A model generated the notes under the pieces. The model saw only the letters and a program-made list of their open reading frames with translations, was not told the origin of the DNA and ran no database searches. Made by a program: the position numbers and the translations under genes. 34,649 bases of DNA from an uncultured Gammaproteobacteria bacterium (GTDB lineage: Bacteria > Patescibacteriota > Patescibacteriia > 2-12-FULL-60-25), in assembly GCA_964415965.1 (NCBI GenBank), contig CAYQCK010000003.1:131426-166074 (forward strand), given 5' to 3'. Positions within the stretch are counted from its first letter, which is position 1; the number at the start of each line of letters is the position of its first letter. Shown piece by piece: positions 13,934-34,464 of this stretch.

Positions 13934-13952
13934 CCCCGCCTGACGGAAGGAT

Positions 13953-15200: not shown

Positions 15201-15217
15201 CCTGTATAATCCGAAAT

Positions 15218-15661
15218 ATGCGAAACAAACACTTCCTTCCTGCCTTCTGCCTCGTCCTGGCAGCCTCGCTCATCGGCGCGGGCTGCGAGCTCCCCGCGGC
15301 CGAGGACGGCGGCGCCGTAACCCAAACCGAAACCGCAACCTCGACCGAAACCGTCACGGCCAAACCCACGGTCATCGAGCTCTACACCAGCGAAACCTGT
15401 CCGCACTGCCACAACGTCAAAAACCAAATCGCGGCTAACGGCTGGGACAAGCTGATGCCCATCGGACAGAAGCCGCTGGAGGACCAAGCGAACCTGAAAC
15501 TCGTCACGGAACGGGCGAAAACCTGCCGCCTGGCGCTCGATAAGCTCCAGGTACCCATGCTCTGGAACGGCCAACGCTGCCTGACCGGCGACGGCCCCAT
15601 CCTGGGCTATCTGACCCAGCTCTCCAAACTCTATGAGACTTCGACATCTACTTCCCGTTAG
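15218..15661 (+). CDS. thioredoxin-fold lipoprotein (glutaredoxin/NrdH-like, CPHC active site)
   Basis: Lipobox LIGAGC, then ELYTSETCPHCHNV...VPMLW...G, which is a Trx-fold signature. Start trimmed to the ATG at 15218. Confidence 0.6.
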   Translation: MRNKHFLPAFCLVLAASLIGAGCELPAAEDGGAVTQTETATSTETVTAKPTVIELYTSETCPHCHNVKNQIAANGWDKLMPIGQKPLEDQANLKLVTERAKTCRLALDKLQVPMLWNGQRCLTGDGPILGYLTQLSKLYETSTSTSR

Positions 15662-16139
15662 CGCGCTCGGTCTGGTCCTGGCCCTGCCGGCCAAAGCCGT
15701 CTGCCCGGTCTGCACCATCGCGGTCTGCGCCGGCCTCGGGCTCTCGCGCTGGCTCGGCATCGACGACACCGTCAGCGGCGTCTGGATCGGCGGAGTCACC
15801 TTCTCGCTCATCGCCTGGACCAAAAGCTGGCTTGACCGCAAACGCATCCGCTTTCCGGGCCGGCCCATCCTGATCGCCGCAGCCTATTACGCCTTGGTCC
15901 TCGGTCCGCTCTTCTGGCTCGACATCATCGGCCATCCGCAAAACGTGCTCTGGGGCATGGACAAGCTCCTCCTCGGCACGCTCTTCGGCAGCGTCGGCTT
16001 CGCCCTGGCGGCTTCGCTCTACGAACCGCTCAAGCGCCGCAACGGCGACAAGCCCCACTTCCCTTTCCAGAAGGTCGCCATGCCGGTCGGCGCCTTGGTC
16101 ATCTTGAGCTTATTCTTCTATTTCCTCACCCGCACCTGA
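15633..16139 (+). CDS. integral membrane protein with N-terminal CxxC...C cysteines (168 aa)
   Basis: AVCPVCTIAVCAG followed by 3-4 TM segments. Overlaps the upstream Trx-fold gene by 29 nt. Confidence 0.45.
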   Translation: MRLRHLLPVSALGLVLALPAKAVCPVCTIAVCAGLGLSRWLGIDDTVSGVWIGGVTFSLIAWTKSWLDRKRIRFPGRPILIAAAYYALVLGPLFWLDIIGHPQNVLWGMDKLLLGTLFGSVGFALAASLYEPLKRRNGDKPHFPFQKVAMPVGALVILSLFFYFLTRT

Positions 16140-16140
16140 T

Positions 16141-16671
16141 ATGCCCAACGACATCGCCAAGCTCGACGAATTCATCCGCAAAGTGGATGACATGAAGAAA
16201 GAGAACAAGCTGGACCTGTCCGCCGACCAGGACCTGTCCCTCGCGGTCATGAATCTGGTCAGCATCGAGGAGCACTTCTTCTTCACCGGCGCCAAACTCG
16301 GCAAACCGGAATATTATGACCTCTTGGCCGAAGTCCGCGAGATGCGCAAAGGCCTGCTCAAGAAGCTCGTCGGCGAAACCGAAGGCGAGGTCTGGTGCAT
16401 CTCCAAGCACCTCTTGGCCGCTTCGATGCGCCTCATGGAGGTCGGCACCAAGCAGCAAGGCCTAGGCAAAAAAGACGAGGCCCGCGAGCTGTTCCAAAAA
16501 TCCTACGACCTCTACTCTTTGTTCTGGGGCCTGAACATGAAGCTCATTAGCGTTCCGGACGTCAAAGCCGTTGACGAACAGGCTGTAAACCGCCACGACA
16601 CCGAAAAAACCGGCTTCATGGGCAAACTCGGCCAACTGGTAAAAAAAGCCATCGACTGCTGCCTGGAATAA
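16141..16671 (+). CDS. hypothetical cytoplasmic protein (176 aa)
   Basis: Starts 2 nt after the previous stop and is followed by a terminator hairpin. Confidence 0.5.
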   Translation: MPNDIAKLDEFIRKVDDMKKENKLDLSADQDLSLAVMNLVSIEEHFFFTGAKLGKPEYYDLLAEVREMRKGLLKKLVGETEGEVWCISKHLLAASMRLMEVGTKQQGLGKKDEARELFQKSYDLYSLFWGLNMKLISVPDVKAVDEQAVNRHDTEKTGFMGKLGQLVKKAIDCCLE

Positions 16672-16689
16672 AATATTTTGAAACGCGAC

Positions 16690-16716
16690 AAAAGGAGCCC
16701 ATTGGCTCCTTTTTCA
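16690..16716 (+). terminator. intrinsic terminator
   Basis: AAAAGGAGCC-cattg-GCTCCTTTTT followed by CATTT. Confidence 0.7.
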
Positions 16717-16726
16717 TTTAGCGACG

Positions 16727-16870
16727 CCCCACTTCGCAAGTGACCCCGGGGGTCTGGGGGTCCGCGCCAAGCGTGGTGGCAGGATAACTAACGTCGGCGA
16801 CACCGAGAGCGGCATCGCGGACCCCCAGGACTTTTGCTACTTTTGGTCACAAAAGTAGATAGGAGGGCTT
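16727..16870 (+). repeat. copy A of the conserved structured element (core only; lacks the 5' GGATTCCAGC...GCTGGAATGAC module)
   Basis: CACTTCGCAAGTGAC...GGGGGTCCGCG...GACACCGAGAGCGGCATCGCGGACCCCC...CTACTTTTGGTCACAAAAGTAGATAGGAGGGCTTT. Its 3' end overlaps the stop codon of the convergent HD gene. Confidence 0.85.
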
Positions 16871-17785
16871 TCACTCTCTGATCATCGCCTTGGTCAGCTC
16901 TTCTTCCGAAGATTCAAGCACCGCGATGACGCGTCGATAGTCTTCTTTGGACTTGTCAGGCAAATCTTTCTGTCCGTCCACGATTTTCCGCAGTTGCGCG
17001 ATGGCGCCGGCGTGATCCAGCCCGCCGCGGCCACGGAACGCCTGGTACTTGTCGATGACGGCCAAAACCCCGTACCTCTCCATGAGTTCCAGGACCTTTG
17101 AACCGGGATGGATATCATCCAAGGGCACACGGGCCGGGTTCCGTCCCTCCAGGATGTGGTGCGTCGCGGCGATGACGACGACTTCGTCGTCTATCGCCCC
17201 GCCGCGGTTGCGCTGCAGCACTTCATACGTCCAGTCGGCATGGTCGCGCCAGAACTCCAACATCGGTTTGGTCTCGACATCCACGCCCAGCTCCTGGGCC
17301 AGCACCGACCTGATGCCGACGGGATCCCGCGTTTCCGTCTCACGCATGAACTCGGCGACCGTCTTCGGGACCGGCTTGCCGCCGACCGTCCTGAACGGAT
17401 TGAACGGCATCTTGGGCGTGGCGAACAGCGTCTTGATGGCCGCCCGCAAGGCTGGCGACTTGGTTTCCGGACCAGACTTCCCGATGTCGTGCAGCAGGGC
17501 GCAAAGCATCAGCTTTTCACGCGTCATGCCCCGGATGTCGAGCTTGGGCCAGATTGCCCCGACCATCCGCGCCATGCAGATCGCGTCCTCCAGGTGTTCC
17601 CCCGTCTCGATTAGGCGTTCCCGCAACTCCGGACGTTCCTCCAGCCTGAAGTCCAACCCCAGCTTGGCGACCTGCTCCAATACGCGTTGCCTGGCGGCTT
17701 CCTCCGGAGGCGTTTCGGACGGCATGGGCATTCTCGGTTCAGGCATACTTGGGCTATAGGATAGCCGTCCCAGGGCATTTGGCAA
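16871..17785 (-). CDS. HD-domain phosphohydrolase
   Basis: LLHDIGK, the HD motif, with further conserved His/Asp (ATHHILEG). Confidence 0.65.
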   Translation of the reverse strand: MPNALGRLSYSPSMPEPRMPMPSETPPEEAARQRVLEQVAKLGLDFRLEERPELRERLIETGEHLEDAICMARMVGAIWPKLDIRGMTREKLMLCALLHDIGKSGPETKSPALRAAIKTLFATPKMPFNPFRTVGGKPVPKTVAEFMRETETRDPVGIRSVLAQELGVDVETKPMLEFWRDHADWTYEVLQRNRGGAIDDEVVVIAATHHILEGRNPARVPLDDIHPGSKVLELMERYGVLAVIDKYQAFRGRGGLDHAGAIAQLRKIVDGQKDLPDKSKEDYRRVIAVLESSEEELTKAMIRE

Positions 17786-17791
17786 ATCCCG

Positions 17792-18163
17792 TTAACCAGT
17801 CAGGGCCCGCAGGGCCTCTTCCGTGCTGCCGACGAAAAACGTTTGGCCGCCCCGGTTGCTTTCGCGGATCAGCGCCTGCAGGCTCTCGCTTTGATAGCCC
17901 GAGAAGTCGCCCACGATAGCCAACTGGACGTGATACGTGACGGACTTCTGCAGGATCTCGCCGGCTAAGCCAGTGCGCAGATCGAAAAAATCCGGATTGA
18001 TGTTATCCGCGTGCAGGATGATCTTCTTGGGCGACTGGACGGCGGGATGCGCCATCAGGTCCAAGGCATCGCCGGCCGTCCGGATGACGATGCCGTCCGC
18101 CAAGACCTCCGCGACCTTCTGCCCATCGTATTCATGCGTTTTGATTTCCATGCCGGGAAGCAT
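17792..18163 (-). CDS. DUF4180-like small protein (123 aa)
   Basis: ORF 6 nt downstream of the HD gene on the same strand. Composition is protein-like; family assignment is from memory of the DUF4180 pattern. Confidence 0.4.
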   Translation of the reverse strand: MLPGMEIKTHEYDGQKVAEVLADGIVIRTAGDALDLMAHPAVQSPKKIILHADNINPDFFDLRTGLAGEILQKSVTYHVQLAIVGDFSGYQSESLQALIRESNRGGQTFFVGSTEEALRALTG

Positions 18164-18197
18164 AGCACAAAACCCGGGTATTGCCCGGGTTTTGTGC

Positions 18198-18287
<90 letters not shown>

Positions 18288-18486
18288 ATGCTCGGCCTTG
18301 CGACCTTCGTTCCGTTCACGCCTGCTGGCGCTCACCGCACTTCCGGTCGGGGCCTGCGCTCCCCATTCGCCCGCTGGCGAACGAGGGCCCCACCACATCG
18401 GATGCGCGGACAGCGTAACCGATTGAGGCTTGACGGTCAACCCGGGGCATTGTAAGGCGCCGGATTATTCCTTAATCTATGGATAT

Positions 18487-18690
18487 ATGTCGACTCCCGA
18501 CACCCTGCGCGCCCTGTGCTTCGATGAAGCCGGAGCCGCGCGCCCCAAGAACGACTGCCGCGCCAGCATCATCAACCATCTCATCTTGGAGGAAGGTTTG
18601 GATATCGACGAAGCCGAGGACCTGGCCGAGCAGACGCTCCGCCAAGCCAACCTCTGGCCGGAGAATCCGACGGCACAACCGCTGCCGTAA
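18487..18690 (+). CDS. possible small acidic protein (67 aa)
   Basis: ORF with plausible composition, followed by a highly structured non-coding stretch. No strong RBS. Confidence 0.25.
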   Translation: MSTPDTLRALCFDEAGAARPKNDCRASIINHLILEEGLDIDEAEDLAEQTLRQANLWPENPTAQPLP

Positions 18691-19062
18691 ACAAGATCCC
18701 GGGTCGCGCTCCGCTTGCCCGGGATGCCTCGCCACGCGAGGCACTTATCCACCGTTGCGCTCTTGACGCGGTCCATGCGGCATGAGAAGAAATAGCCATG
18801 CAAGTCGGTAACGTCTCCGTCGCGACATCCGCAGTCCGCTCCGCAGTTTGCGCTGAGCGCCAGGTTCGACTCCCCCACGTCTGATCCCAGGTGGGTTTTT
18901 TCGTTCGCCGTCCGGCGTCGGATACCGATTCGACGCGGTCCGGTGAGCGGGGCAGGACTCATTGAGTCTCTCCCCTTCCAACATCGCGTTGGCTCACGGG
19001 ATCCCAGATGCGGGTGTCGCCGTTCCCATGCTTGGCGGCGACGCAGCATCGCCAGGAGGAAA

Positions 19063-19095
19063 CCCCTCCCCCTCACCGGGGAGGGGTTTTCGTTT
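19063..19095 (+). terminator. intrinsic terminator, + strand
   Basis: CCCCTCCCC-ctcacc-GGGGAGGGG followed by TTTTCGTTT. Confidence 0.7.
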
Positions 19096-19101
19096 GCCCA
19101 G

Positions 19102-19331
19102 CCATGAACTCCAGCTGGAGCTTACCCCAGCCACCGAGCCGGGGCTGGAATGACAGGTGGGTTAGTTGGGTCGGTTGGGTTAAAGAGTCCCACTTCGCAA
19201 GTGACACGGGGGACCGGGGGTCCATGCTAAGCGTGGCGCACAGGATAACAGACGTCGGCGACACCGAGAGCGCATCATGGACCCCCGGAACTTTTGCTAC
19301 TTTTGGTTACAAAAGTAGATAGGATGGCTTT
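19102..19331 (+). repeat. copy B of the conserved structured element (full length, with 5' module)
   Basis: CCATGAACTCCAGC-[hairpin]-GCTGGAATGACA, a GT-rich spacer, then core CACTTCGCAAGTGAC...GATAGGATGGCTTT. Confidence 0.85.
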
Positions 19332-19336
19332 TGGTA

Positions 19337-19377
19337 AAAGAAAAGCCCCCTCACACCAAAGTTTCTGATGTGAGGGG
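19337..19377 (-). terminator. intrinsic terminator for the - strand lipoprotein operon
   Basis: - strand reads CCCCCCTCACATCAGAAACTTTGGTGTGAGGGGG followed by CTTTTCTTTT. Confidence 0.75.
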
Positions 19378-19395
19378 GGGCAGAGGTTTCGCCAG

Positions 19396-20154
19396 CTACC
19401 GGTGCATCCGGAAGTATGCAGAAGCAGTGTTCTGGCGGTGGGGTTCGCCGTTGTTGCGCGGAACCCCGAACATCCGAGTCATGGTCCCGACTTCGATGCC
19501 CGGGATGCCAGGGGCGCCGGGGTTGGTGACGAGGGCGAAGTCGACCTGAACTTTGCCTACGCCACCGTTGTGGGGAAGGAAGACGTACCGGACGATCATG
19601 CCCGGCGGAACCAACGCTACGCGGTCGACGCGGCCGTTGCGGCGCGTGACGTCCACGTACACCAGCTTCTCCCCTTCGCAATCCAGCGGCTTGATGTGCC
19701 CGCTCGCCCTGACCTCGACCATGAAGGTCTTGTTCAGGCTGTTGTCCACCACGAGGGTGAGCGCGGGATCAGCTCCGCAGAAGGGGCCGGCGTACTCGGG
19801 GGAGATGATGACGTTCGCCGGAGGCACTGCCATCGGCGGCTGGCCCTGAGGCACGGCTGCCGTCGGCATGAGCGGGGGCTGGCCGGTCACCGGAGGAGCG
19901 GCCTGGGTCGGCACCGCTGCGGTCTGGGCCGGCACGCTAGTCGGCTTGGCCCGCGCTTCCCGACGGTCGCTCTCCATCTTCTCCAGGCAGGCCAGGTAGA
20001 CCTCCTGAGAGGGGCTCTTCTGCCGGTCGCAGGTATCGCTGGATGAGTCGTACGCGCCTCTCCAGTCGGCGCCGGTCTTGATGGTCGCTCCGCACGCGCT
20101 GGTGAGGATCGAGACGATGATGACGAACGCTACGTACACGAGAGAACTCTTCAT
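19396..20154 (-). CDS. secreted lipoprotein (252 aa), paralog family with shared Y-x-x-CLEK motif
   Basis: Lipobox ILTSAC, Pro/Ala/Gln-rich linker, beta-rich C-terminal domain. GGAGG RBS upstream of the ATG at 20154. Confidence 0.6.
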   Translation of the reverse strand: MKSSLVYVAFVIIVSILTSACGATIKTGADWRGAYDSSSDTCDRQKSPSQEVYLACLEKMESDRREARAKPTSVPAQTAAVPTQAAPPVTGQPPLMPTAAVPQGQPPMAVPPANVIISPEYAGPFCGADPALTLVVDNSLNKTFMVEVRASGHIKPLDCEGEKLVYVDVTRRNGRVDRVALVPPGMIVRYVFLPHNGGVGKVQVDFALVTNPGAPGIPGIEVGTMTRMFGVPRNNGEPHRQNTASAYFRMHR

Positions 20155-20300
20155 TGGATTCCTCCACATTGGCGACTTGGTCGCCGTCTAGTCGATGGTT
20201 TTGGCTCGGCCCCACCCTTGCGGACGGGGCCGTCACCGGTCAACGGTTCAGCTCCACATGGCGAACTCCGAAAGAATTTCGAGTAGGGCCACCATAGCCG

Positions 20301-20879
20301 CTACTTCCTCCCCGAGTTGCCGCTGGTGCAGCAAATCGGATCCTTGGGGTTCGCCCGGCAGATCGCGTCGTGCTGGGCCTTGGTCGCCCTGGCGAGGTCC
20401 GCGACGTCCTGGTCGCTCGCTCCGCCCGACGCTCCCGGCGTGACGTAGATGCGCGCGCCGCCCGAGCTGCGCTCCATGGCGACCGCGCCGTACGGCGTCG
20501 AGTCGGGGATGATGGCCGGAGCGCAGGCCGGGGAACCCGGCAAGCACGTCCTGACCATTCCCGGCGACCCGTATCCGTATCCGCCGTATCCGTATCCGCC
20601 GTAACCAGGCATCGCTCCCGGCATGCCCCCGCCGGACGTCTGTCCGCGGCAGTACATGTCGGCCTGCGAGCTGCCCATGGTCGGCGAGTTGCGCTTGATG
20701 CACTCGTCGAACTGGGCGCGGCTGTTGATGACCGTGTCGGTCGAGGTGTTGTACGGCCCGCGGGTCGTCGTCGTCCGGCTGTAGCCGTTCGGCGTGTTGA
20801 CCTCGGTGGTCGCGCTCACCGTCCTGCAGCCCATCGTGGCGAGAACCAATGCAACCAGCACCAATACGAGCTTGCTCAT
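20301..20879 (-). CDS. Cys-rich lipoprotein with Gly/Tyr repeats (192 aa)
   Basis: Lipobox LVLATMGC, a GYGGYGYGGYGYG tract, 10 Cys, GGAG RBS, driven by the TTGACAAGA-N-TATATT promoter. Confidence 0.6.
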   Translation of the reverse strand: MSKLVLVLVALVLATMGCRTVSATTEVNTPNGYSRTTTTRGPYNTSTDTVINSRAQFDECIKRNSPTMGSSQADMYCRGQTSGGGMPGAMPGYGGYGYGGYGYGSPGMVRTCLPGSPACAPAIIPDSTPYGAVAMERSSGGARIYVTPGASGGASDQDVADLARATKAQHDAICRANPKDPICCTSGNSGRK

Positions 20880-20973
20880 GTGATGATCTCCTTCGGGCTA
20901 TGCCCGATTTTCGGTTGTCGAAGCCGTCCCAGCTGAAGTTTCGCACTTGGCTACACCTTCAGTAGAACAAACA

Positions 20974-21002
20974 AATATAACACAAAAAGCCATTCTTGTC
21001 AA
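20974..21002 (-). promoter_or_regulatory. sigma70-like promoter (TTGACA-17-TATATT) for the 20879 gene
   Basis: - strand reads CTTGACAAGAATGGCTTTTTGTGTTATATTTGTTTGTTC. This is near-identical to the promoters at 24867-24895, 22008-22036 and 34465-34493. Confidence 0.6.
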
Positions 21003-21083
21003 GCCCCACCAGACAAAAAATATAGCTCAACAGAGCCCAATAATAGTGGCTTAACTAAGCCAATAAACCGAGAATATACGGCT

Positions 21084-21298
21084 TGGATTCCAGCTAGAGT
21101 CCACCCTGGCCACCGAGCCGGGGCTGGGATGACAGGACAAGGAAGCGAAAGAACCTCGTTTCGCAAGTGACCACGGGGGTCTGGGGGTCCGCGCCAAGCG
21201 TGGTGGCAGGATAACTAACGTCGGCGACACCGAGAGCGGCATCGCGGACCCCCAGGACTTTTGCTACTTTTGGTCACAAAAGTAGATAGAAAGGCTTT
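21084..21298 (+). repeat. copy C of the conserved structured element
   Basis: TTGGATTCCAGC-[hairpin]-GCTGGGATGACA...CGTTTCGCAAGTGACC...GATAGAAAGGCTTT. Confidence 0.85.
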
Positions 21299-21305
21299 CA
21301 ATTTT

Positions 21306-21520
21306 ATGACCAACCATGGATTCCAGCTTTCGCTGGAATGACACGTGGGTTAGTTGGGTCGGTTAGGTTAAAGAGTCCCACTTCGCAAGTGACAAGGGGG
21401 ACCGGGGGTCCGCGCCAAGCGTGGTACGCAAAAACGCAAACGCCCGCGACACCGAGAGCGGCATCGCGGACCCCCGGAACTTTTGCTACTTTTGGTTACA
21501 AAAGTAGAGAGAAGGGCTTT
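21306..21520 (+). repeat. copy D of the conserved structured element, in tandem with C
   Basis: ATGACCAACCATGGATTCCAGC-tttc-GCTGGAATGACA...CACTTCGCAAGTGAC...GAGAGAAGGGCTTTT. Confidence 0.85.
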
Positions 21521-21537
21521 TGCCGACAATATAGATA

Positions 21538-21570
21538 AAGCCGCGGAAACAAGTGTCTCCGCGGCTTTGC
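21538..21570. terminator. bidirectional intrinsic terminator
   Basis: AAAGCCGCGGAAACAAGTGTCTCCGCGGCTTT with a T-run on both strands. It ends the - gene 21590..21940 and any + transcript covering C-D. Confidence 0.7.
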
Positions 21571-21589
21571 GTGGCGGGAAGCGCTGGGC

Positions 21590-21940
21590 TTAGTAGCCGT
21601 ACGGCCGGCCGGGTGAGGACCAGCGGTTGTAGCCCGGGGTGCCGTAGTTGCCGTAGCTCGGGTAGTAGCCTCCGGCCTGGTACACCGGCAGCTGTCCGGG
21701 ACGACCCGCGCGGATCCAGTAGCCGCACTCTTCGGCGGCGCCCGGATAGCCCGCGTTCTTCTCCAGACACAGCTGGTAGGCCGACTTCTCGGCCGTGTCT
21801 GAAGTGACCTCGGTCGAGAACAAACCAACATCAGATCTGCGTGCATGCGCCATTTCCGGCGTCGTATCACGCACCGTGGTCGTGTGGCCGCAGCCAGCGA
21901 GGGCGAACGCCAACATCATGGTAATGAGCAAAGGCTTCAT
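21590..21940 (-). CDS. small secreted lipoprotein (116 aa) with the AYQLCLEK motif
   Basis: Start trimmed to MKPLLITMMLAFALAGC (lipobox) with GGAGAG RBS. Tyr/Gly/Pro-rich C-terminus. Confidence 0.6.
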   Translation of the reverse strand: MKPLLITMMLAFALAGCGHTTTVRDTTPEMAHARRSDVGLFSTEVTSDTAEKSAYQLCLEKNAGYPGAAEECGYWIRAGRPGQLPVYQAGGYYPSYGNYGTPGYNRWSSPGRPYGY

Positions 21941-22007
21941 CTCAACTCTCCCAGACAGCCAGAGTGGCCGTCTTTTCTTGATGGTTTGAAGATTCGGGGA
22001 ACGTATA

Positions 22008-22036
22008 TGTATACCATTTTTCCGTGTTTTTGTCAA
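22008..22036 (-). promoter_or_regulatory. sigma70-like promoter (TTGACA-17-TATACA)
   Basis: - strand reads GGGTTGACAAAAACACGGAAAAATGGTATACAT. Confidence 0.55.
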
Positions 22037-22057
22037 CCCTCCAGGGTATTTTCCGGC

Positions 22058-22096
22058 AAAGAAAAACCCCCTCGCCTGCGAGTGCAGGGAGGGGGT
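22058..22096 (-). terminator. intrinsic terminator after the VirB6-like gene
   Basis: - strand reads CCCCCTCCCTGCACTCGCAGGCGAGGGGG followed by TTTTTCTTT. Confidence 0.7.
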
Positions 22097-22134
22097 TGAG
22101 AGCCGCGTTGCGCGGCCCAAGGAGCGGCCTGACG

Positions 22135-23823
22135 TCACTTGCAGACGTCAGGATGCCTGGCGCAGTACGCGTCCAGGCCGGGGTTGCCCGAGCAGTTGCC
22201 GTTAGGGCAGTTCCGGACCACGACCGGAGGGGTCGTCGAGGTGGGCGGGGGCGCCACGCTCTTGTCCGGGACCTTGACCAGCACTTCCTGGCTCAGCTCG
22301 GTCTCGCCCGAAGCGTAGACCGCAGCCACGCGGTAAGCGTAGGTCGTGCCCGCGACCACCGTCGCGTCGTCGTAGTGGGTGACGCCGTTGGCCAGCGCGT
22401 TGAACGCCGTCCAATTCGTCTCGCCCACTGCCCGGCGCTCGTAACGGTAGCCCTTGGCTGCCTTCGGGATCTCGGGGTAGGTCAGCCTGACCTTGCCGTC
22501 GACGATGTTCGCCTGGGGCGCGAACATCTTCGAGAGCGAAGTGCCTTCCTTCAGGTTGAAGGTGTCGGCCTTGCCCCACGAGAAGATCGTGATGCACAGG
22601 CTGCCGATGGCCAGGAACATCATGAGGATGAACGACGCGGCCAGCAGCTGGCGGGCGCGCCGCGGGGCTCCCGTGGCGTCCTCGTCCGGCCAGCACATCC
22701 AGCCGACGAACCCGGTGAACAGGGCGCCGCAGAGCGCCGCGTACCACGGGAACCCGACGAACTTCTTGTCGCCGATGCCGAGGACCCACTTGATGGCGCC
22801 GATGGCCACGTCCACGATGCCGCCCAGGAGCGCGCCGATCTGGATGACCAGAGCGTCGAACTTGACCTGCAGCGGAGGGAAGAAGACCACGAGCGCGAGG
22901 AGCACGAGGAGCGCGTACCCGGCGTACACCAGGGAGCGCGCCGCCCGCTGCCGCCAGCTGAGCGTGTCGATGCCGTTGTTCTCCGCGTTCTCGAAGGAGA
23001 GGTAGGAGAAGATCCCGGCCAGCGTCGTCAGTACGAGCACCGACGGGAAGGGCATGAGCACGCCGATGGCGAGGACCGGCAAGAGCGCCGAATTGATCCG
23101 CGCTTTGGCCCGCTTGATGGCCGGTTTGAACATCTCCTGGTCGGCCAGGTTGATGTCCACGTTCGCCAGGCCCCTGAGGCCGGCCGTGATGAGCGTCTTC
23201 GCGATGCTCACGATGGCGTTGCTCGAGCCTTCGGCGAAGTCCACGCCCAGCTTGGCCATGTGCGCCACCAGGTCCACGACCATGAACAGCACTTCGCGGG
23301 CCATCAGGATGTACACCACCCCGAGGACGGCCAGCATGCGCGCGTCCATGAGCGGAGCCAGGTTGACCGGATCGGCGACCACGTTCCCGACCGCCAGATG
23401 CGCGGCCAGGAAGAACCAGACGCCGAGCGAGAGCAGGCCGAGGAATGAAGCCGAAATCACGGTCATGACCGAGAAGTCGTCCAGCGGACGGAGTCCGTTC
23501 ACGACAATCCAGGCCGAGAAACCGCTGGCGATCAGCAGCCCGACGATCCACGCCGACTGCGGCACGGTCGTACCGAGCGCGAGGAGCATGGCGCCGAAGA
23601 CGCCGACGAACAGCACGCCGACCACGACCCAGCCGATCCGGCGGAACGCCGGAGCGATGAGCGTGTCGTACGCCAGTCCCGCCAGGTCGACGAGCGCCTG
23701 GCCGGTCGCGGCGAACATGTTGCCGATGGCCGTCAGGAGCGCGCCGCCGCCCAGGAACTGGACGACCGCCACGAAGCCGACGAGCACGACGATCGAAAGC
23801 AATACCACTACCATGAGCTGCAT
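22135..23823 (-). CDS. VirB6/TrbL-like polytopic membrane protein with C-terminal FN3-like domain and Cys-rich tail
   Basis: About 10 TM helices across 430 aa, then a soluble C-terminus (TYPEIPKAAKGYRYERRAVGETNWTAF...YAYRVAAVYASGETELS) and CPNGNCSGNPGLDAYCARHPDVCK. Start trimmed to the ATG at 23823. Confidence 0.45.
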   Translation of the reverse strand: MQLMVVVLLSIVVLVGFVAVVQFLGGGALLTAIGNMFAATGQALVDLAGLAYDTLIAPAFRRIGWVVVGVLFVGVFGAMLLALGTTVPQSAWIVGLLIASGFSAWIVVNGLRPLDDFSVMTVISASFLGLLSLGVWFFLAAHLAVGNVVADPVNLAPLMDARMLAVLGVVYILMAREVLFMVVDLVAHMAKLGVDFAEGSSNAIVSIAKTLITAGLRGLANVDINLADQEMFKPAIKRAKARINSALLPVLAIGVLMPFPSVLVLTTLAGIFSYLSFENAENNGIDTLSWRQRAARSLVYAGYALLVLLALVVFFPPLQVKFDALVIQIGALLGGIVDVAIGAIKWVLGIGDKKFVGFPWYAALCGALFTGFVGWMCWPDEDATGAPRRARQLLAASFILMMFLAIGSLCITIFSWGKADTFNLKEGTSLSKMFAPQANIVDGKVRLTYPEIPKAAKGYRYERRAVGETNWTAFNALANGVTHYDDATVVAGTTYAYRVAAVYASGETELSQEVLVKVPDKSVAPPPTSTTPPVVVRNCPNGNCSGNPGLDAYCARHPDVCK

Positions 23824-23881
23824 TTTCAATCTCCTTCTGTCCGGGCCCGATTCCGGGCCCGGACCGGTTGTCAGACGCTCG

Positions 23882-24769
23882 CTACCATTCCCGCCGAGCT
23901 TTCGCCCGACGGGCTGCGATCTTGGAGCGGACACCGTCGACCGCTCCCGTGAGGCTGTCCACTCCAGTGGCCATCTCCTTCAGGGCCGCATCAGGCTTGT
24001 CGACGAGCTCCTCAGCCTTCTTGCCGAAGGCGCCGAAGAACTTCTTCTTGGCCTTCTCGAGCGTGCCCATGATGCCTCCGGCTTCCGGCGGCTTGATGTC
24101 GCCGTAGGCCAGCTTGAGGTGGGCGATCCAGGTGTCCTTGTCGAGGTCGATGAGGGTGAGCATGAGGTTGAAAAGTTCCCACCTGTTGCCCACGATCTTT
24201 GCCCGATACGTCTCGAACGCCTTCTTGTCCTCTTCGGACAGGCTGGCGTGCTTGGCTTGGAACGCCCTCTGCCGCGCGACCTCGAGCGAGAGCAGCGCCG
24301 AGCTGAACGTCGCGCTCTCGAGCAGGAGACTCCGGGCCTTTTCCTTGGCCTCGGCCGTCGCCTTGCTCAGGTCCTGCTCCGTGATCTTGCCCTTGGTCCG
24401 CTGGGCATGTCCCAGCCCGTGGATGAAGCTATCGATCGCCTCGTCCAACAGGCTGATGTACTCCTCGGGGACGCCGAGCGACTTGAGGCCGGTGCGGACA
24501 AGCTTGGGGTTCTGGATGAGCGCCGCGGCTCCGGCTGTCACCAGGCCTGCGGCATGGGTGCCGATGAGGCTCTCGACCGCGTCGAGGCCGCGCGACATCC
24601 ACGGCTGGTTGGCCACTCGGCCGCCCAACCCGCCCGCCACGACCTGCACCAGGTTCGAGAAGAACCTGACGTAGAACCGCGGATCGGACGCCATATCCTT
24701 GGCTTCTTCCTTGCCCTTCTTGCCGCGCCTGCCGCCACCAGAGTCATCCCTGCCCGTATCTTCTGGCAT
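23882..24769 (-). CDS. hypothetical protein (295 aa), first gene of the VirB6-like operon
   Basis: GGAGAAGGA RBS upstream of the trimmed start. Helical, Lys/Ala/Glu-rich C-terminal half. Confidence 0.5.
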   Translation of the reverse strand: MPEDTGRDDSGGGRRGKKGKEEAKDMASDPRFYVRFFSNLVQVVAGGLGGRVANQPWMSRGLDAVESLIGTHAAGLVTAGAAALIQNPKLVRTGLKSLGVPEEYISLLDEAIDSFIHGLGHAQRTKGKITEQDLSKATAEAKEKARSLLLESATFSSALLSLEVARQRAFQAKHASLSEEDKKAFETYRAKIVGNRWELFNLMLTLIDLDKDTWIAHLKLAYGDIKPPEAGGIMGTLEKAKKKFFGAFGKKAEELVDKPDAALKEMATGVDSLTGAVDGVRSKIAARRAKARREW

Positions 24770-24866
24770 GTTCGTTTCCTTCTCCCCCGTTTGGGGGTTC
24801 TTCTGTTGCCGAAGTTGCCGCTCCTTGGGCGCGTCCCCGAATGGGACACTCCTCAAAGAACAAACA

Positions 24867-24895
24867 AATATAGCACAAAACCCCCTTTTTGTCAA
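24867..24895 (-). promoter_or_regulatory. sigma70-like promoter (TTGACA-17-TATATT)
   Basis: - strand reads CTCTTGACAAAAAGGGGGTTTTGTGCTATATTTGTTTGTTC. The first ~25 nt of the transcript are near-identical to the 20974 promoter transcript. Confidence 0.6.
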
Positions 24896-25021
24896 GAGTG
24901 CCATTAACAAAAATGTCGCTCAACTGAGCCATTTTTTACCCAAATTATTTGGCTTTGTTGAGCGATTTATTCTAAGCGCCGTTAAGAAAATGGTGGATAT
25001 GTGCTTTTTAGCCATGACCAG

Positions 25022-25213
25022 CCATGGATTCCAGCTTGCACTGTAATGACAGCGGGGGGGCGGAAGAGTCACACTTCGCAAGTGACCTCGGGGGTCTGGG
25101 GGTCCGCGCCAAGCGTAGCGGCAAGATGACTGACGTCGGCGACACCGAGAGCGGCATCGCGGACCCCCAGGACTTTTGCTACTTTTGGTCACAAAAGTAG
25201 ATAGGAGGGCTTT
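25022..25213 (+). repeat. copy E of the conserved structured element (degenerate 5' module)
   Basis: CCATGGATTCCAGCTTGCACTGTAATGACA...CACTTCGCAAGTGACC...GATAGGAGGGCTTT. Confidence 0.85.
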
Positions 25214-25220
25214 CTGTTTT

Positions 25221-25458
25221 ATGGCCAACCATGGATTCCAGCTGGAGTTTACCCCGGCCACCAAGCCGGGGCTGGAATGACGGATGGATCAGGTGGGTTA
25301 GGTGGGTCAAAGAGCCCCGTTTCGCAAGTGACACGGGGGACCGGGGGTCCATGCTAAGCGTGGCGCACAGGATAACCCGCATTCGCGACACCGAGAGCGC
25401 ATCATGGACCCCCGGAACTTTTGCTACTTTTGGTCACAAAAGTAGATAGGATGGCTTT
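25221..25458 (+). repeat. copy F of the conserved structured element, in tandem with E
   Basis: ATGGCCAACCATGGATTCCAGC-[hairpin]-GCTGGAATGAC...CGTTTCGCAAGTGAC...GATAGGATGGCTTT. Confidence 0.85.
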
Positions 25459-25469
25459 ATGCCTTTTAC

Positions 25470-27071
25470 CTACAGCCTAACTTCAAAAGTCACGCCATCT
25501 TCAGTCTCCTTAAGTTTCAGAAACCGAGGATCCGATTCGATGAGCTTCAGGAATTGCCTATGGATTTCACGCTTGCTAATGAAAACGAATCTCGAGTCGA
25601 GCCGATCATGGATCAATTCCCAAGCTTGCTCCTTGGTCGTGCTCGTCATGCCCCAGGTGAGGTTCCTGACATCGTCCGACAAAGTCGAGGACGCGACGTA
25701 GAGGAAAGTCGGGTCCATGCCTGAGACATAACGCAATCGGTCATCGGCCGCGAACAGCATCGGGAACTCGTCCCAGCTCGAATGGAACACGCGGTCTCCC
25801 GGTTGCGCCAACTTCGCGACGGCTTCAAAGCTGCCGCGATAAGCTGTGTCCGGATAGTTCGCCGGGTGCAGGCTCCGCCAGATGCCTTGGACCTCGCGCC
25901 CGGCCAAACCAAGCGCCAAAACGCCCACAAGAATCAGCAAGGCCGATAGCCCGCGCTTCCCCAACACCCTGAGGCTATCCTTGGCCTCGGCCGCCAAACG
26001 GCGCGCGTCGACCATGCTCCAGATTGCGCCGCACCAGATGGCCACGGCCGGCGCCAGATATTCGGTCGTGCGTCGGCTCTTGAGGGTCAAGGCGAAAAAA
26101 GCCGCCACTAATAAGCCAGAAGACAGGCATAAAGCCGCCTTCTCGCGGTCCGCCGGACGGCGCGGCGCCAGCGCCAGCCCGGCCAGGCCCAGCAGCAAAT
26201 CGATGATCCAGGGCGCATACGCCGTGACCAAATGCGTGGCTTCAGGCGGCAGCCACTCGGTGCCCATGACAACCTTGCCCATGGGCGTGCCCAGGCCGAT
26301 GATGAAAACCTGCGTCCAGCTGAACAAGAAATTCTCCGGGAAATTCGGATGGACAAGCATCCCGAACAGTCCCCCGGCCAGGACCGCCGCGACCTCCTTC
26401 CACAGCCCGTGCTTCAAGGCCTGGACGAACCGCATCCCGCCCAAATCCCTGTCGGCGACCAAACGACCGAAGGCCAGGACCGTCGCCGCACCGGCCAGAT
26501 AGGGCCAACCGCCGTGCGACAACGCATAGGTCGCCGCGATGGCGAACGCCGCCCACGGCCGCCGTCGCCACACGGCCAGGATGCCGAGCAGGAACAACGC
26601 GATAGCCAAGGGCGAAGCCTTGCCCAACAGGATCCGCGTCACGAACGGCTGGGTCACGGCCAACACGGTCACCCAAATCCCCGGCCTCCAGACCCCGAAC
26701 GCGCGCAAAACGGCATACGCCGCCGCCAGGCAGGCCGCAGCCAAAGCCACGCTCGCGATGCGCAATCCCTGGAATGGGCCGAAAACCGCCGTGGCCGGCG
26801 CGACCAGGACATGGAACAGGAAATGCAGGTCCGCGTAATGCTGTCCGACGGACGTCAGATCAAGCCAGGGAAATGTATTCAACGGCCCATGCGCCCAAAG
26901 CAACGCCGACGTTTTGGCGTGGTAAAAAGCATCCGGGTCATTGAACCCGTCCCAAGGCATCAGGACCGAGAAATACGCCAGGCCGAACAAAAAAACCCCG
27001 ACAGCCCTCTTCAAACCATCGACTCTCGACTCACGAATACATGCCTTGATCACCCCCGAACTATAACACAA
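25470..27071 (-). CDS. polytopic membrane protein, probable GT-C-type glycosyltransferase (ArnT/PMT-like) with C-terminal soluble domain
   Basis: About 12 TM helices over 400 aa plus a ~130 aa C-terminal domain, last gene of the galU-pilin operon. Family call is tentative. Confidence 0.4.
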   Translation of the reverse strand: MCYSSGVIKACIRESRVDGLKRAVGVFLFGLAYFSVLMPWDGFNDPDAFYHAKTSALLWAHGPLNTFPWLDLTSVGQHYADLHFLFHVLVAPATAVFGPFQGLRIASVALAAACLAAAYAVLRAFGVWRPGIWVTVLAVTQPFVTRILLGKASPLAIALFLLGILAVWRRRPWAAFAIAATYALSHGGWPYLAGAATVLAFGRLVADRDLGGMRFVQALKHGLWKEVAAVLAGGLFGMLVHPNFPENFLFSWTQVFIIGLGTPMGKVVMGTEWLPPEATHLVTAYAPWIIDLLLGLAGLALAPRRPADREKAALCLSSGLLVAAFFALTLKSRRTTEYLAPAVAIWCGAIWSMVDARRLAAEAKDSLRVLGKRGLSALLILVGVLALGLAGREVQGIWRSLHPANYPDTAYRGSFEAVAKLAQPGDRVFHSSWDEFPMLFAADDRLRYVSGMDPTFLYVASSTLSDDVRNLTWGMTSTTKEQAWELIHDRLDSRFVFISKREIHRQFLKLIESDPRFLKLKETEDGVTFEVRL

Positions 27072-27119
27072 CCCCCGCTGGTTGGCGGGGGCTGCATCTG
27101 TTCGTTGCGCAACGAACTC

Positions 27120-27503
27120 CTATCCCTGTCCGGTCGCGTTGATGAGCGAACCCATCACGAAACTCGAGATGGCGTAAGCCGCGACGATGATTATCAAGCC
27201 GATGATGGCCTGGGTAAGCATGTCTTTGGCCTTCTTGACCTTGCTGTCGTCGCCCTGCGCCGTCATCCAGAGGAAACCGGCGTAAAGCGTCAGGACGAGG
27301 AAGACGATGCCCAGGAAGCCGAGGAAAATATTGATCAGGTTACCGATCATCTCGGTCAGCCCTCCTTCAGTTTTAATCCCGGCCGTCTCACCGACTTTTC
27401 CGACCATCTCCTGCCCTTTCTGGAACGGATTCTCAGCCAGGACCTGCAGCGGCGCCATCAGCGCCAAGCCGGCTCCGGCGATGTATGTCTTTAGGTTCTT
27501 CAT
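27120..27503 (-). CDS. VirB2/TrbC-like (T4SS-pilin-like) small membrane protein, paralog F
   Basis: Signal peptide, short ectodomain, TM1 ending LYAGFLWMTAQGDDSKVKKAKDM, then TM2 LTQAIIGLIIIVAAYAISSFV. Confidence 0.6.
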   Translation of the reverse strand: MKNLKTYIAGAGLALMAPLQVLAENPFQKGQEMVGKVGETAGIKTEGGLTEMIGNLINIFLGFLGIVFLVLTLYAGFLWMTAQGDDSKVKKAKDMLTQAIIGLIIIVAAYAISSFVMGSLINATGQG

Positions 27504-27538
27504 AACGATATTAGCTTCGTGGCTCACGTTTATGCTTA

Positions 27539-27961
27539 TTAGCCTCCTTCTCCGCCTCCGCCGCCGACATCGCCCGTGCCTCCGCTTGTCGCGTTGCCGA
27601 GCGAGCCGATGACGAAATCCGCGATCGCATAGGCCGCGACGATGATGACCAAGCCGATGACGGCCTGGGTTATCATGTCCTTGGCTTTCTTGACCTTGGA
27701 CTCGTCTCCCTGCGCCGTCATCCAGAGGAAACCGGCATAGATCAGGATGGCCAACAGGACCAACCCGAGCAGCCCCAGGGCTTGGCCGATCAAGGAACCG
27801 ACGATCCGCGTCAGATCCGTGGGCCCTTGGTCGTACCCGGACGGTCTGGCCGCAGCGCTCAAGCCTGTCCGCATCGAATCCGCCGGGGCGGCTACGGCTG
27901 GCAAAGCCAAAACCGCGGCCAAACCTACGGCCAAACTCGTGCAAGCGATGAATTTCCTCAT
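27539..27961 (-). CDS. VirB2/TrbC-like small membrane protein, paralog E (Gly-rich tail)
   Basis: IYAGFLWMTAQGDESKVKKAKDMITQAVIGLVIIVAAYAIADFV; start at MRKFIAC (an alternative ATG lies at 27970). Confidence 0.6.
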   Translation of the reverse strand: MRKFIACTSLAVGLAAVLALPAVAAPADSMRTGLSAAARPSGYDQGPTDLTRIVGSLIGQALGLLGLVLLAILIYAGFLWMTAQGDESKVKKAKDMITQAVIGLVIIVAAYAIADFVIGSLGNATSGGTGDVGGGGGEGG

Positions 27962-27996
27962 GTGATGCATAACGATGGTTACAAGCGGACCGCGGG

Positions 27997-28395
27997 CTAG
28001 GCGTCCTGCGTCGCGGTGATCAAACGTGAAATGACGAAGCTGGTGATCGCCCATGCCGACAAGATGATGGCCAAACCGATAATGCCTGAAACGATAAGTT
28101 TCTTGGCTTCTCCGGTCTTTTCATCGTTCCCTCCGGCGATCATCCATTTGAAACCGCCGAGCAGCACGATGACCACGGCGACGATGCCGAGGAAACCGAG
28201 CGCGACGTTGATGATGCGGGCTGCGGTCTGGCGGACATCGCCTGAACCGAGCTTGATCGTCGACTGGATGGCCCCTACGCCCAGATCGTTCTGGTTGAGG
28301 TCATCGGCGGCGAACACCACGGCCGGGGCGGCCAAAACGGCGGCCAGACCGAGGGTCGTGGCGAAGGCTGCAGCTTTCTTAAGACGTTGCGTCAT
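27997..28395 (-). CDS. VirB2/TrbC-like small membrane protein, paralog D
   Basis: Signal peptide, then LLGGFKWMIAGGNDEKTGEAKKLIVSGIIGLAIILSAWAITSFV. Confidence 0.55.
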   Translation of the reverse strand: MTQRLKKAAAFATTLGLAAVLAAPAVVFAADDLNQNDLGVGAIQSTIKLGSGDVRQTAARIINVALGFLGIVAVVIVLLGGFKWMIAGGNDEKTGEAKKLIVSGIIGLAIILSAWAITSFVISRLITATQDA

Positions 28396-28492
28396 GTCAT
28401 GTGTCACCTCCTTTCGGTTTGGGATACACGCTTTACGTGTCGGTGGGAAGTTTAGCAGATGCGCCGTCCGGAGTCGAATCCCCAAGCGGCCT

Positions 28493-28954
28493 TCAGGGCA
28501 CGGCTTGGCCGGTCGTTTCCGGGTTTCCGGCCTGGCTCGTCGGGGCGTTGTTCGGGGGCGTCGCGCCGGACAGCGTGCTCCCGAGTCTCGTGATGATGTT
28601 GAACACCAAGACGTAAGCCAACGACACGATCGCCAGGCCGATGACCGCGTTCTTGAGCGTCGTGGTCGCCTTCTTCACCCGGTCGCTTTCGCCTGACGCC
28701 GTCATGTACATGACTCCGCCCCAGATGAACATGGCCAAAAACAGCGAGCCGACCAAGGGCAGTACCCAACTGATGATGCGGGCCACGAGTTCGGGCACGC
28801 TCTTGCCGCCCATCGGGTCCTGCAGGCCGTAACTCTGGAAACCGGCCGGCGCCGGGCTCGGTTGCGACGCCGCCGAGACGGGCAGGGTGATGGCCAGGAC
28901 GACCAGGCAAGCGACAACGGCCGAAACGGTCAAAAGGGTTTGTTTGTTTTTCAT
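28493..28954 (-). CDS. VirB2/TrbC-like small membrane protein, paralog C
   Basis: FIWGGVMYMTASGESDRVKKATTTLKNAVIGLAIVSLAYVLVF, with a Pro/Thr-rich C-terminal tail. Confidence 0.55.
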   Translation of the reverse strand: MKNKQTLLTVSAVVACLVVLAITLPVSAASQPSPAPAGFQSYGLQDPMGGKSVPELVARIISWVLPLVGSLFLAMFIWGGVMYMTASGESDRVKKATTTLKNAVIGLAIVSLAYVLVFNIITRLGSTLSGATPPNNAPTSQAGNPETTGQAVP

Positions 28955-28961
28955 AGCGGTG

Positions 28962-29657
28962 TCACGAGCCTTGCGGCACGGCGTAGCCCGTCGTCTCCGG
29001 CGGTGGCTTCGGGACATCTGAAGTCAAAGCCTTGAAGAAGAAGTCCACCAGGACATAGGCGAACATGATGAGCGCCAAACCGATGATGGCGTACTTCATC
29101 GTGTCCGTCGCCTGCTTCACCCGGTCGCTCGAACCGGCCGTCATGTACATGATGCCGGCGTAGATGAACACGATCAGGGCCAAGGCCCCGACCATGCCGA
29201 TGAACGCGGCCACGAACCGGCCGATAAGGGCGTTCAACGTCACGCAATCGGCCTTGCCCGTCGGACACAGCGGATTCGCCAACGTCATCGGCGAACCGGC
29301 CGATACGCCCGCCGAGGCCTGCGTGGCCGAAGCGGCGCGCGCCAGACAGGTCGGATCATTCGGGTTCTTCTTGCACAGGTCTTCGATAAGGGGCTCGAGG
29401 GCGGGACCAACCGCTTTCTGCGCCTGTTTGTTCTTGCAGCATGCCGCATTTACGGTCTTGACGCACGTTCCGAGCTTATCCTGGTTCATCTCGCAATCGT
29501 CGCTCACCAGGTTGCAGCTCCCGCCCTGCTTCGTGCAATCCTGGGGAGTCATGGCCGCGGCCGACTCCGCTTGGACAAAAAACAGGCTAAACGCGACCAT
29601 AAGACCGGTAATGGCCGGCAGGATTTTCTTGTATGTTTGCTTGGCCATATGGTTCAT
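28962..29657 (-). CDS. VirB2/TrbC-like membrane protein, paralog B, with ~150 aa Cys-rich ectodomain
   Basis: 12 Cys in the ectodomain, then IYAGIMYMTAGSSDRVKQATDTMKYAIIGLALIMFAYVLVDFF. ATGA overlap with paralog A. Confidence 0.55.
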   Translation of the reverse strand: MNHMAKQTYKKILPAITGLMVAFSLFFVQAESAAAMTPQDCTKQGGSCNLVSDDCEMNQDKLGTCVKTVNAACCKNKQAQKAVGPALEPLIEDLCKKNPNDPTCLARAASATQASAGVSAGSPMTLANPLCPTGKADCVTLNALIGRFVAAFIGMVGALALIVFIYAGIMYMTAGSSDRVKQATDTMKYAIIGLALIMFAYVLVDFFFKALTSDVPKPPPETTGYAVPQGS

Positions 29658-30043
29658 TGGCTAATCACTATCCCGGCCACGTAGCGGACGATGGTCCAGG
29701 CGCTCATCACGATGAGCATGCCGATGGCCCCGCCTTTCATGGCCTGCGTCCCCTTCTGCACCCAGTCGGCCTTGCCGAACGACAGCAGATACCGGGCTCC
29801 GCCGTAGACGAAGGTAGCGAAGAACAGGGCGGCCGAAATCTCCATCAGCATGTTGCCGAACGCCGCCGCCGTCCTGACGATGTCATCCAGGCTGCAGTCC
29901 CCGGAGGCCATGCATTTTTTCTGCACACCTGTCTTATCCATTTCGGCCGTCAGCGACTGCGCCCAAGCCGCGGTCGGCAAGAGCCACGCGCCGAGCGTGG
30001 CGGCCAATGCGGCCAAAGGACGTTTTAGGTTCGGCATAAACAT
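29654..30043 (-). CDS. VirB2/TrbC-like small membrane protein, paralog A
   Basis: Signal peptide, then FVYGGARYLLSFGKADWVQKGTQAMKGGAIGMLIVMSAWTIV. Its ATG overlaps the stop of the upstream SBP gene (TGATG). Confidence 0.5.
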   Translation of the reverse strand: MFMPNLKRPLAALAATLGAWLLPTAAWAQSLTAEMDKTGVQKKCMASGDCSLDDIVRTAAAFGNMLMEISAALFFATFVYGGARYLLSFGKADWVQKGTQAMKGGAIGMLIVMSAWTIVRYVAGIVISQ

Positions 30044-31494: not shown

Positions 31495-31495
31495 T

Positions 31496-32368: not shown

Positions 32369-32428
32369 ATACCTGGATTATACCCGTCCCGAAGGCAGAT
32401 AAAAAAGACCGCCGATTTTTGCCGGCGG

Positions 32429-32643: not shown

Positions 32644-32663
32644 AAAATATTTAGGACGCGGCC

Positions 32664-34435: not shown

Positions 34436-34464
34436 TCAGCTCCTCCTGTTGAAGGGACCGTCAT

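Follow-up and report, generated by a model that had tools for sequence, protein, structure and literature searches.

What is the noncoding sequence that recurs, always in the same direction, along a short stretch of Patescibacteria DNA? We addressed this question in a 34,649-nucleotide (nt) stretch of contig CAYQCK010000003.1 (here called the window), which has a high GC content (about 0.60), is contained in the 63.5-kb Joint Genome Institute contig Ga0248168_1000578, and encodes a YchF protein 78 to 89% identical to proteins from Patescibacteria and Uhrbacteria genome bins. A core of ~150 nt occurs seven times in this 34.6-kb window, and a motif scan located seven REP-like hairpins of the form GGATTCC(N)GGAATGAC (module 1). 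Both sets lie exclusively on the plus strand, which places all 14 modules of the window on one strand. The best-supported reading, to which we assign a probability of roughly 45%, treats the copies as lineage-specific insertions, the inserted unit being a modular, nonautonomous, structured interspersed element. The core belongs to an uncatalogued family that is present in several Patescibacteria lineages, and its 3' module is also found in repeats of Clostridia and other bacteria.

A complete unit consists, in this order, of the REP-like hairpin, an optional G/T-rich linker, and the core (Table 1). Module 1 is a palindromic unit of 25 to 53 nt that ends in the conserved tail GGAATGAC. The 5' part of the core contains a small hairpin, CACTT CGC AAGTG, followed by two G-runs. 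A long-range helix, P1 (GGGGGTCCGCG ... CGCGGACCCCC), then closes ~49 nt in the window copies; the core also carries the invariant sequence GCGACACCGAGAGC and ends in TTTTG and an invariant hairpin, CTACTTTTG-GNNA-CAAAAGTAG. The U-tract UUUUGCUACUUUUG doubles as the 5' arm of this AU hairpin. Read on the plus strand, the core is laid out like an RNA 3' end, with a 5' hairpin, two G-runs, P1 with its insert of ~50 nt, and a U-tract. We follow the lettering of an earlier note on this DNA, in which G is the copy at 32.4 kb and H is a solo module 1 hairpin.

The base pairs of the core are kept by compensatory substitution, and the core fold is therefore conserved as a single-stranded structure, either RNA or single-stranded DNA (ssDNA). 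Three P1 pairs have compensatory changes among the window copies alone. In an alignment of 21 sequences, 13 of the 14 P1 pairs vary on both sides, and 84.7% of the P1 cells are paired. For the structure as a whole, 88% of the cells are paired, compared with 41 to 56% when the partners are slid by one to three columns, and the covariation score is 0.40 (0.08 to 0.15 with slid partners). In a diverged copy beside ychF in a related genome (L162; sequences from outside the window are given L numbers), three double changes preserve the 3' hairpin, and a change from CC/GG to UU/AA preserves the outer part of P1. In a fuzzy search for imperfect 3' hairpins, made to count wobbles, the hairpin was almost always perfectly Watson-Crick, and the extra matches were mostly the reverse strand of the palindrome itself.

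In the AT-rich members of the family (L007, L010, L023, L024, L085, L104, L116, and L119), the P1 loop contains two conserved strands, CUGUUUGAG and GCGAGUU, which flank a small covarying helix. Their tandem G-A arrangement resembles a kink-turn. The window counterparts of these strands are AAGCGUGG and CCGAGAGC.

To establish how far the family extends, we scanned for the pattern of the 3' hairpin. Among species-representative genomes, 17 loci were found in Magasanikiibacteriota, Falkowbacteria, CPR2, unclassified Patescibacteria, and two Clostridia bins, and metagenomes yielded more than 120 loci. The whole core architecture is common to the window copies and about 20 independent sequences. 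Across the window and 28 other loci, no Rfam family matched at the gathering threshold or at an E value of ≤10, the only matches being tRNAs and chance matches. A BLAST search of plasmid and phage collections with copy F returned no match, and literature searches by topic and by hairpin sequence retrieved nothing relevant and no paper quoting the hairpin. No associated protein emerged either: all-against-all clustering of 752 open reading frames (ORFs) near hairpin matches, like Pfam searches of selected neighbors, returned only housekeeping genes, and Pfam scans of the 289 nearest flanking ORFs revealed no recurrent transposase, reverse transcriptase, or nuclease.

Several other repeats share parts of the core or accompany it. 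A multicopy repeat of more than 300 nt in Clostridia of the rumen and duodenum (L001, L005, L013, L015, L016, L102, L129, and L017, the last from Clostridia bin RGIG577), which adjoins dnaN/recF, trigger factor, and ypeB, has CCCCGAGAGCGAGG and the exact hairpin AACTTTTGCTACTTTTGGTTACAAAAGTAG in common with the Patescibacteria core. Because of this exact hairpin, the 3' module is common to several phyla. A conserved multicopy noncoding element of at least 500 nt (L019, L035, L121, L127, L128, L132, L137, and ~20 other Ga0307379/Ga0307380 contigs) is present in 24 or more copies beside unrelated genes. Toward its 3' end, two TTTTG-hairpin modules stand in tandem, and a defined 3' boundary follows ~50 nt beyond them; the L128 copy had no Rfam match. 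Cores form head-to-head inverted pairs, with hairpin subtypes GTTC and CTAC, at L004 5081-5426, L012 6119-6450, and L100 3320-4699; those of L100 make up an alternating array of six adjoining a tRNA gene. REP-like hairpins (GTCATTCC / GTCATCCTGAGCG ... GGAATGAC) recur in both orientations in many Patescibacteria contigs (e.g., L160 12300-12400, L007 4786-4869, L024 at about 60-95, and L039), often 30 to 200 nt from a core. These hairpins seem to constitute a repeat family in their own right, one associated with the core.

The gene order ychF, NTP-transferase, solute-binding protein, and T4SS-pilin paralogs is kept in relatives. In L162 (ychF 89% identical), a diverged core occupies the same place and orientation beside ychF, its 3' hairpin ending 4 nt from the ychF stop codon. 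No core stands beside ychF in L166 (87%; spacer of 59 nt) or, despite synteny, in L160 (85%) and L164 (79%; a 1.08-Mb contig). L164 also retains, in unchanged order, homologs of the genes at 22135-27071, with no repeat there. These are genes that the earlier note called accessory. By sequence comparison, the copies appear to be lineage-specific additions to a syntenic block rather than cassette boundaries, because relatives keep the gene order without the repeats, and the copy number suggests proliferation. In short-read assemblies of the same species, contigs end within the copies.

The same comparison bears on integrons. If the elements were attC-type sites, the folded strand would be the one antisense to an array of cassette genes that all point the same way. 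In keeping with this, the folding strand runs antisense to genes that share one orientation and lack Pfam domains, and the sites abut stop codons. However, the units comprise one to three genes, two of them with their own promoter-like site; the ends of the element do not pair to make it one imperfect hairpin; GTTRRRY motifs are confined to the 5' linker; the window encodes no integrase; and single copies adjoin housekeeping genes in other genomes. We regard integron-like cassette boundaries as very improbable, the nonpairing ends and the synteny in L164 of the between-repeat genes without repeats having largely refuted them.

The closest parallels of an interspersed element of this kind are the REP/BIME, BOX, ERIC, and Correia repeats, which are likewise short, noncoding, multicopy, and modular or mosaic, form stable hairpins, lie at gene 3' ends or near terminators, break short-read assemblies, and have expanded in particular lineages. 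The present core differs from them in being longer (~150 nt), in having a covarying long-range helix that is kept across Patescibacteria lineages, in occupying one strand only in the window, and in lacking terminal inverted repeats and an identified RAYT or partner insertion sequence. No RAYT (Y1 transposase) was found in the window or among the 289 flanking ORFs, with 63.5 kb of this genome covered. When orientation was compared as for REP/BIME, module 1 was all plus in the window and in both orientations in L007, and cores alternated in L100, L004, and L012. We propose that the element would spread via a strand-specific single-stranded intermediate, with the enzyme encoded elsewhere. In situ, it would act at most as a terminator or insulator in the plus direction at operon ends, and it would not be a dedicated antisense regulator of each neighboring gene.

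Which strand folds was the next question. The earlier note had inferred the plus strand from substitutions in stems that give G-U pairs there and C-A mismatches on the minus strand. The variants that it named are present (CGTTT/AAGTG in C and F, CCCTGGC/GCCGGGG in C, and ATTCCGG/CTGGAAT in the 32.4-kb copy), and module 1 of the window copies has four G:T pairs, in C (two) and the 32.4-kb copy. The list was selective, however: module 1 of copy B has two mismatches that were omitted and that would be G-U on the minus strand, namely, C-A in ACTCCAGC/GCTGGAAT and A-C in CCCCAGC/GCCGGGG. In the window copies, the only departure from Watson-Crick pairing in P1 and the 3' hairpin is an outermost U-G in P1 (A, C, and E). 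RNAalifold gave the seven cores similar energies, -51.9 kcal/mol on the plus strand and -47.6 kcal/mol on the reverse complement, the latter with G-U pairs of its own. A strand-symmetric brute-force count of helices in the window copies (41 G:T versus 40 A:C) is uninformative because chance helices dominate it. As wobble support is about equal both ways, the evidence from within the window does not separate the strands.

The wider family is more telling. Between Watson-Crick pairs of P1, a symmetric search of about 20 independent members found six G:T mismatches on the plus strand (in L012(-), L014, L077, L085, L104, and L116) and no A:C; in alignment register, the counts were nine G:U and one A:C. 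The usual mutation biases of replication and transcription would, if anything, yield A:C on this strand. The double change from CACTT to CGTTT, which is a tandem G-U/U-G on the plus strand and two mismatches on the minus strand, recurs in C, F, and the ychF-side copy of L162. A canonical intrinsic terminator on the element's plus strand is built from the second G-run, the C-run, and the TTTTGGTTCTTTTG tract in the short-loop relatives L170, L168, L109, L051, L076, and L069; the two top-listed terminator-like sites in the scan of L170, 7811-7844 and 3067-3088, are on that same strand. The assignment of the element to the plus strand is thus weakly supported by evidence from outside the window, and we consider plus to be probably the folding strand.

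Several observations weigh against an interspersed element. No transposition has been seen, and no mobilizing enzyme has been identified. Terminal inverted repeats are lacking (a helix search joined the two ends of no window copy), and on direct reading, no flanking direct repeats or target-site duplications were visible at the window copies. An empty allele was not found within the species, whose strain contigs carry copy A or break inside a copy. Some genomes have only one or two copies, which would also fit an ordinary small-RNA gene, and the compensatory changes that separate the window from L162 at one locus could reflect a function at the level of the host rather than selfish spread. P1 closes a 49-nt insert in the window copies, and the terminator scan does not flag them. 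Finally, the raw minimum free energy is lower on the plus strand in 20 of 24 members, an advantage that is a composition effect because z-scores against dinucleotide shuffles do not differ between the strands (mean difference, -0.13; P = 0.79). A miniature inverted-repeat transposable element was considered separately and rejected, the copies having neither terminal inverted repeats nor a target-site duplication.

The core resembles intrinsic terminators in part: both have a GC-rich helix with a U-rich tract 2 to 5 nt beyond it, here on the plus strand, and by the scan, the short-loop relatives are canonical. Unlike in a terminator, a structured insert of 49 nt separates the two arms of the helix in the window copies, the U-tract is paired into a conserved AU hairpin downstream, and the core keeps a second G-run and a 5' hairpin upstream. 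Since P1 closes this insert, the terminator function of the window copies is only putative. A bolder idea, which we hold to be possible but doubtful, is that the core is an undescribed class of structured RNA, defined by the two G-runs, the covarying helix that closes a conserved internal loop (CUGUUUGAG / GCGAGUU in the AT-rich members), and the U-tract hairpin. Such an RNA would either multiply via an RNA or ssDNA intermediate without an adjacent enzyme or be recruited by the host to protect gene 3' ends against antisense transcription, as a terminator or insulator working in one direction. The 3' module shared with Clostridia and other phyla would then imply a common recognition factor.

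We then examined the genes around the copies. As the earlier note had reported, all copies are plus, the genes between 19.4 and 34.4 kb are on the minus strand, and the distances to stop codons hold: the stop codon of the HD-domain gene (16871-16873) lies inside copy A, its complement being held in the tail GGGCTTTCA; a stop codon at 25470 follows copy F by 12 nt, counted from base 25458, where the note had ended the copy; and the ychF stop codon (32745) lies about 54 nt past the last short hairpin. The genes at 19396-27071 had no Pfam match, which leaves the label GT-C given to one of them unconfirmed. The orientation bias is family-wide, real, and far beyond chance. Among 32 copies surveyed, the nearest downstream gene was convergent in 22 and codirectional in 5. 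With inverted pairs left out, about 16 independent loci were convergent and 3 were not (binomial P of ~0.004, our own calculation from the counts). Upstream genes showed no bias (16 on the opposite strand and 13 on the same strand in 29 copies).

The earlier note had proposed cis-antisense or 3'-end-overlapping regulatory RNAs. Each copy would then be a plus-strand small-RNA gene, acting in cis as antisense to the 3' end of the convergent minus-strand gene; it could also act in trans on minus-strand mRNAs with reverse-complement copies in their 3' untranslated regions (3' UTRs). The convergence toward a gene 3' end in about 16 of 19 loci, the 3' ends lying 0 to 17 nt from a stop codon (A, F, L021, and L162), the P1 wobble asymmetry of the wider family, the terminator-like polarity on the plus strand, and the compensatory changes that keep the structure at the ychF locus in two species all agree with this proposal, and cis-encoded antisense RNAs are likewise opposite to their neighbors and point at their 3' ends. 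Unlike such RNAs, the present copies are multicopy and recently inserted and have no promoter that we could find. Within 16.5 to 25.7 kb, the plus strand has no sigma-70-like promoter, versus five on the minus strand, where the genome uses the canonical TTGACA-N17-TATAtT, noncanonical promoters being possible; in 28 family members, no promoter stands at a fixed distance upstream of the core. Overlap with coding sequence is limited to 5 nt in copy A, the remaining copies being intergenic. If P1 and the U-tract terminate transcription, the RNA would stop short of the gene, and at B, D, L007, and L010, terminators intervene. Seven near-identical copies in 35 kb, with none beside ychF in three relatives (one of which, L164, keeps the order of the 22-27 kb genes as well), look like proliferation and not like seven regulators. 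The regulatory-RNA interpretation of the earlier note is therefore not supported, and a small-RNA gene in either form seems unlikely.

The minus strand could instead be the functional one, with the reverse complement serving as a 3' UTR module of the upstream minus-strand gene that stabilizes or processes the mRNA 3' end, much as REP sequences act in the mRNAs of enterobacteria. Between a minus-strand stop codon and the next minus-strand terminator-like hairpin lie the reverse complements of A, E plus F, and the 32.4-kb copy (hairpins at 16715-16691, about 24975-24925, and 32430-32400, respectively). The first of these hairpins comes after the plus-strand gene 16141-16671 and, on the minus strand, after the HD-domain gene and the reverse complement of A. 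If the last terminates ychF, then the 32.4-kb copy is in the ychF 3' UTR in the antisense orientation. Judging from these positions, A, E plus F, and the 32.4-kb copy are probably transcribed as antisense passengers in 3' UTRs. A minus-strand 3' UTR module would account for the constant orientation of the element with respect to the gene at whose 3' end it lies. It would also suit P1 and the 3' hairpin of the window copies, which are Watson-Crick apart from the outer U-G and fold equally on the minus strand, and the equal composition-corrected fold scores of the two strands. Against it, the P1 mismatches of the wider family would be C-A in six to nine cases and G-U in none or one, and the small hairpin is lost on the minus strand in the CGTTT variant. 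The terminators between gene and element at B, D, L007, and L010 put those copies outside the mRNA, and the upstream gene is on the same strand in 13 of 29 copies. We judge this arrangement somewhat less probable than a small-RNA gene.

A derivative of an ssDNA transposon, of the IS200/IS605-type PATE or the REP/RAYT type, would make the interspersed element more specific: a Y1/HUH transposase encoded elsewhere would recognize its hairpins on one DNA strand, and the direction of replication would set its orientation. Strand-specific hairpins that tolerate G:T, the tandem copies C-D and E-F, the head-to-head pairs and alternating arrays of L004, L012, and L100, the very different repeat bodies with only the 3' hairpin module in common, and left flanks that on direct reading often end in TTTWG are all compatible with such an origin. 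IS200/IS605 omega RNA, PATEs, and HEARO are likewise strand specific, with a structured RNA of ~150 nt, a terminal conserved hairpin, and many copies without an ORF. In contrast to these systems, no Y1 transposase (TnpA), TnpB, or IscB was found nearby (none of the 289 flanking ORFs encodes a Y1 transposase or TnpB), no Rfam IS605-orfB or HEARO match was obtained, and the two end hairpins differ from each other. The active strand of IS608 is on the lagging-strand template and hence codirectional with most genes; the bias observed here is opposite to that expectation, and the GC skew of the plus strand, negative throughout the window, would on its usual reading place the folding strand on the leading-strand template. 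Such a derivative appears a little less plausible still than the minus-strand module. All three (the small-RNA gene, the minus-strand 3' UTR element, and the ssDNA-transposon derivative) remain rivals of the interspersed element, which is the best supported.

Table 1. Element copies and putative transcription signals in the window
Feature	Position	Strand	Remarks
Copy A	16719-16875	+	core alone, without module 1 hairpin; covariance-model match of 175 bits
Copy B	19095-19335	+	long module 1 hairpin 19105-19157, G/T-rich linker, core 19180-19335
Copy C	21084-21302	+	long module 1 hairpin 21084-21136, core 21146-21302; CGTTT/AAGTG variant
Copy D	21305-21524	+	short module 1 hairpin 21317-21343, linker, core 21368-21524; tandem with C
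Copy E	25014-25217	+	short module 1 hairpin 25025-25051, core 25061-25217
Copy F	25222-25462	+	long module 1 hairpin 25232-25284, linker, core 25307-25462; tandem with E
32.4-kb copy (G)	32427-32649	+	module 1 hairpin 32430-32479, core 32493-32649
Solo short module 1 hairpin (H)	32665-32691	+	GGATTCCAGCTTCCGCTGGAATGACG; ~54 nt from ychF stop codon
Strong sigma-70-like promoter	24867-24895	-	TTGACA, 17 nt, TATATT, upstream TG; next minus-strand operon, left of E and F
Strong sigma-70-like promoter	20974-21002	-	minus-strand operon left of C and D
Intrinsic-terminator-like site	19346-19378	-	of gene 19396-20169; between that gene and copy B
Intrinsic-terminator-like site	21537-21568	-	of gene 21590-22138; between that gene and copy D
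Hairpin CCGCCGGCAAAAATCGGCGG then TCTTTTTT	32400-32430	-	directly after reverse complement of 32.4-kb copy; direct reading
Two-way terminator-like hairpin AAAAGGAGCCCATTGGCTCCTTTTT	16691-16715	both	just 5' of copy A; direct reading

The window has further repeats and features of its own. Both promoter-like sites of Table 1 belong to a 30-nt repeated motif (family D11), also present at 22007-22036, 34463-34492, and 12312-12341; at the two tabulated sites, it reads as a TTGACA-N17-TATAtT promoter with an upstream TG on the minus strand. Five adjacent T4SS_pilin (PF18895) paralogs on the minus strand (27120-30043) explain the direct-repeat families D5, D7, D10, and D13, and this array and its flanks (solute-binding protein, NTP-transferase, and ychF) are syntenic in four relatives. 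Short tandem repeats of the ACCAGCT type (CCAGCTACCAGCTACCAGCTA) occur at 14540-14588 and 15038-15072, in or beside an O-antigen-ligase-like gene (13953-15200). The GC skew of the plus strand is about -0.13 where the genes are on that strand (1-16700) and about 0 where they are on the minus strand (16700-34649). This may fit a coding-strand effect superimposed on a constant negative replication skew, with the window on one replichore and plus as the lagging strand.

Mechanical ORFs and public gene calls of 38 to 104 amino acids lie wholly inside the repeats, at L138 16625-16801 (equal to window 25024-25200, plus strand), window 19008-19322, and L159 1497-1613. Such ORFs are almost certainly false genes that arise from a GC-rich repeat. 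A small ORF in module 1 (ATGACCAACCATGGATTCC...TGA) was rejected on inspection, its frame and stop codon varying among the copies.

At about 1 Mb, the genomes of Patescibacteria are small and streamlined, and seven noncoding copies of 150 to 240 nt within 35 kb are therefore a notable load. The family to which the copies belong combines clear covariation and a strongly nonrandom orientation with the absence of an Rfam entry and of an adjacent protein. On a practical level, such repeats break short-read assemblies and produce false gene calls, e.g., a 58-amino-acid gene inside copy E. If the element is mobile, it would point to an unrecognized mode of DNA movement in Patescibacteria; if it is a host terminator, insulator, or small RNA, it would add a regulatory part in a group in which, to our knowledge, almost nothing is known about transcription.

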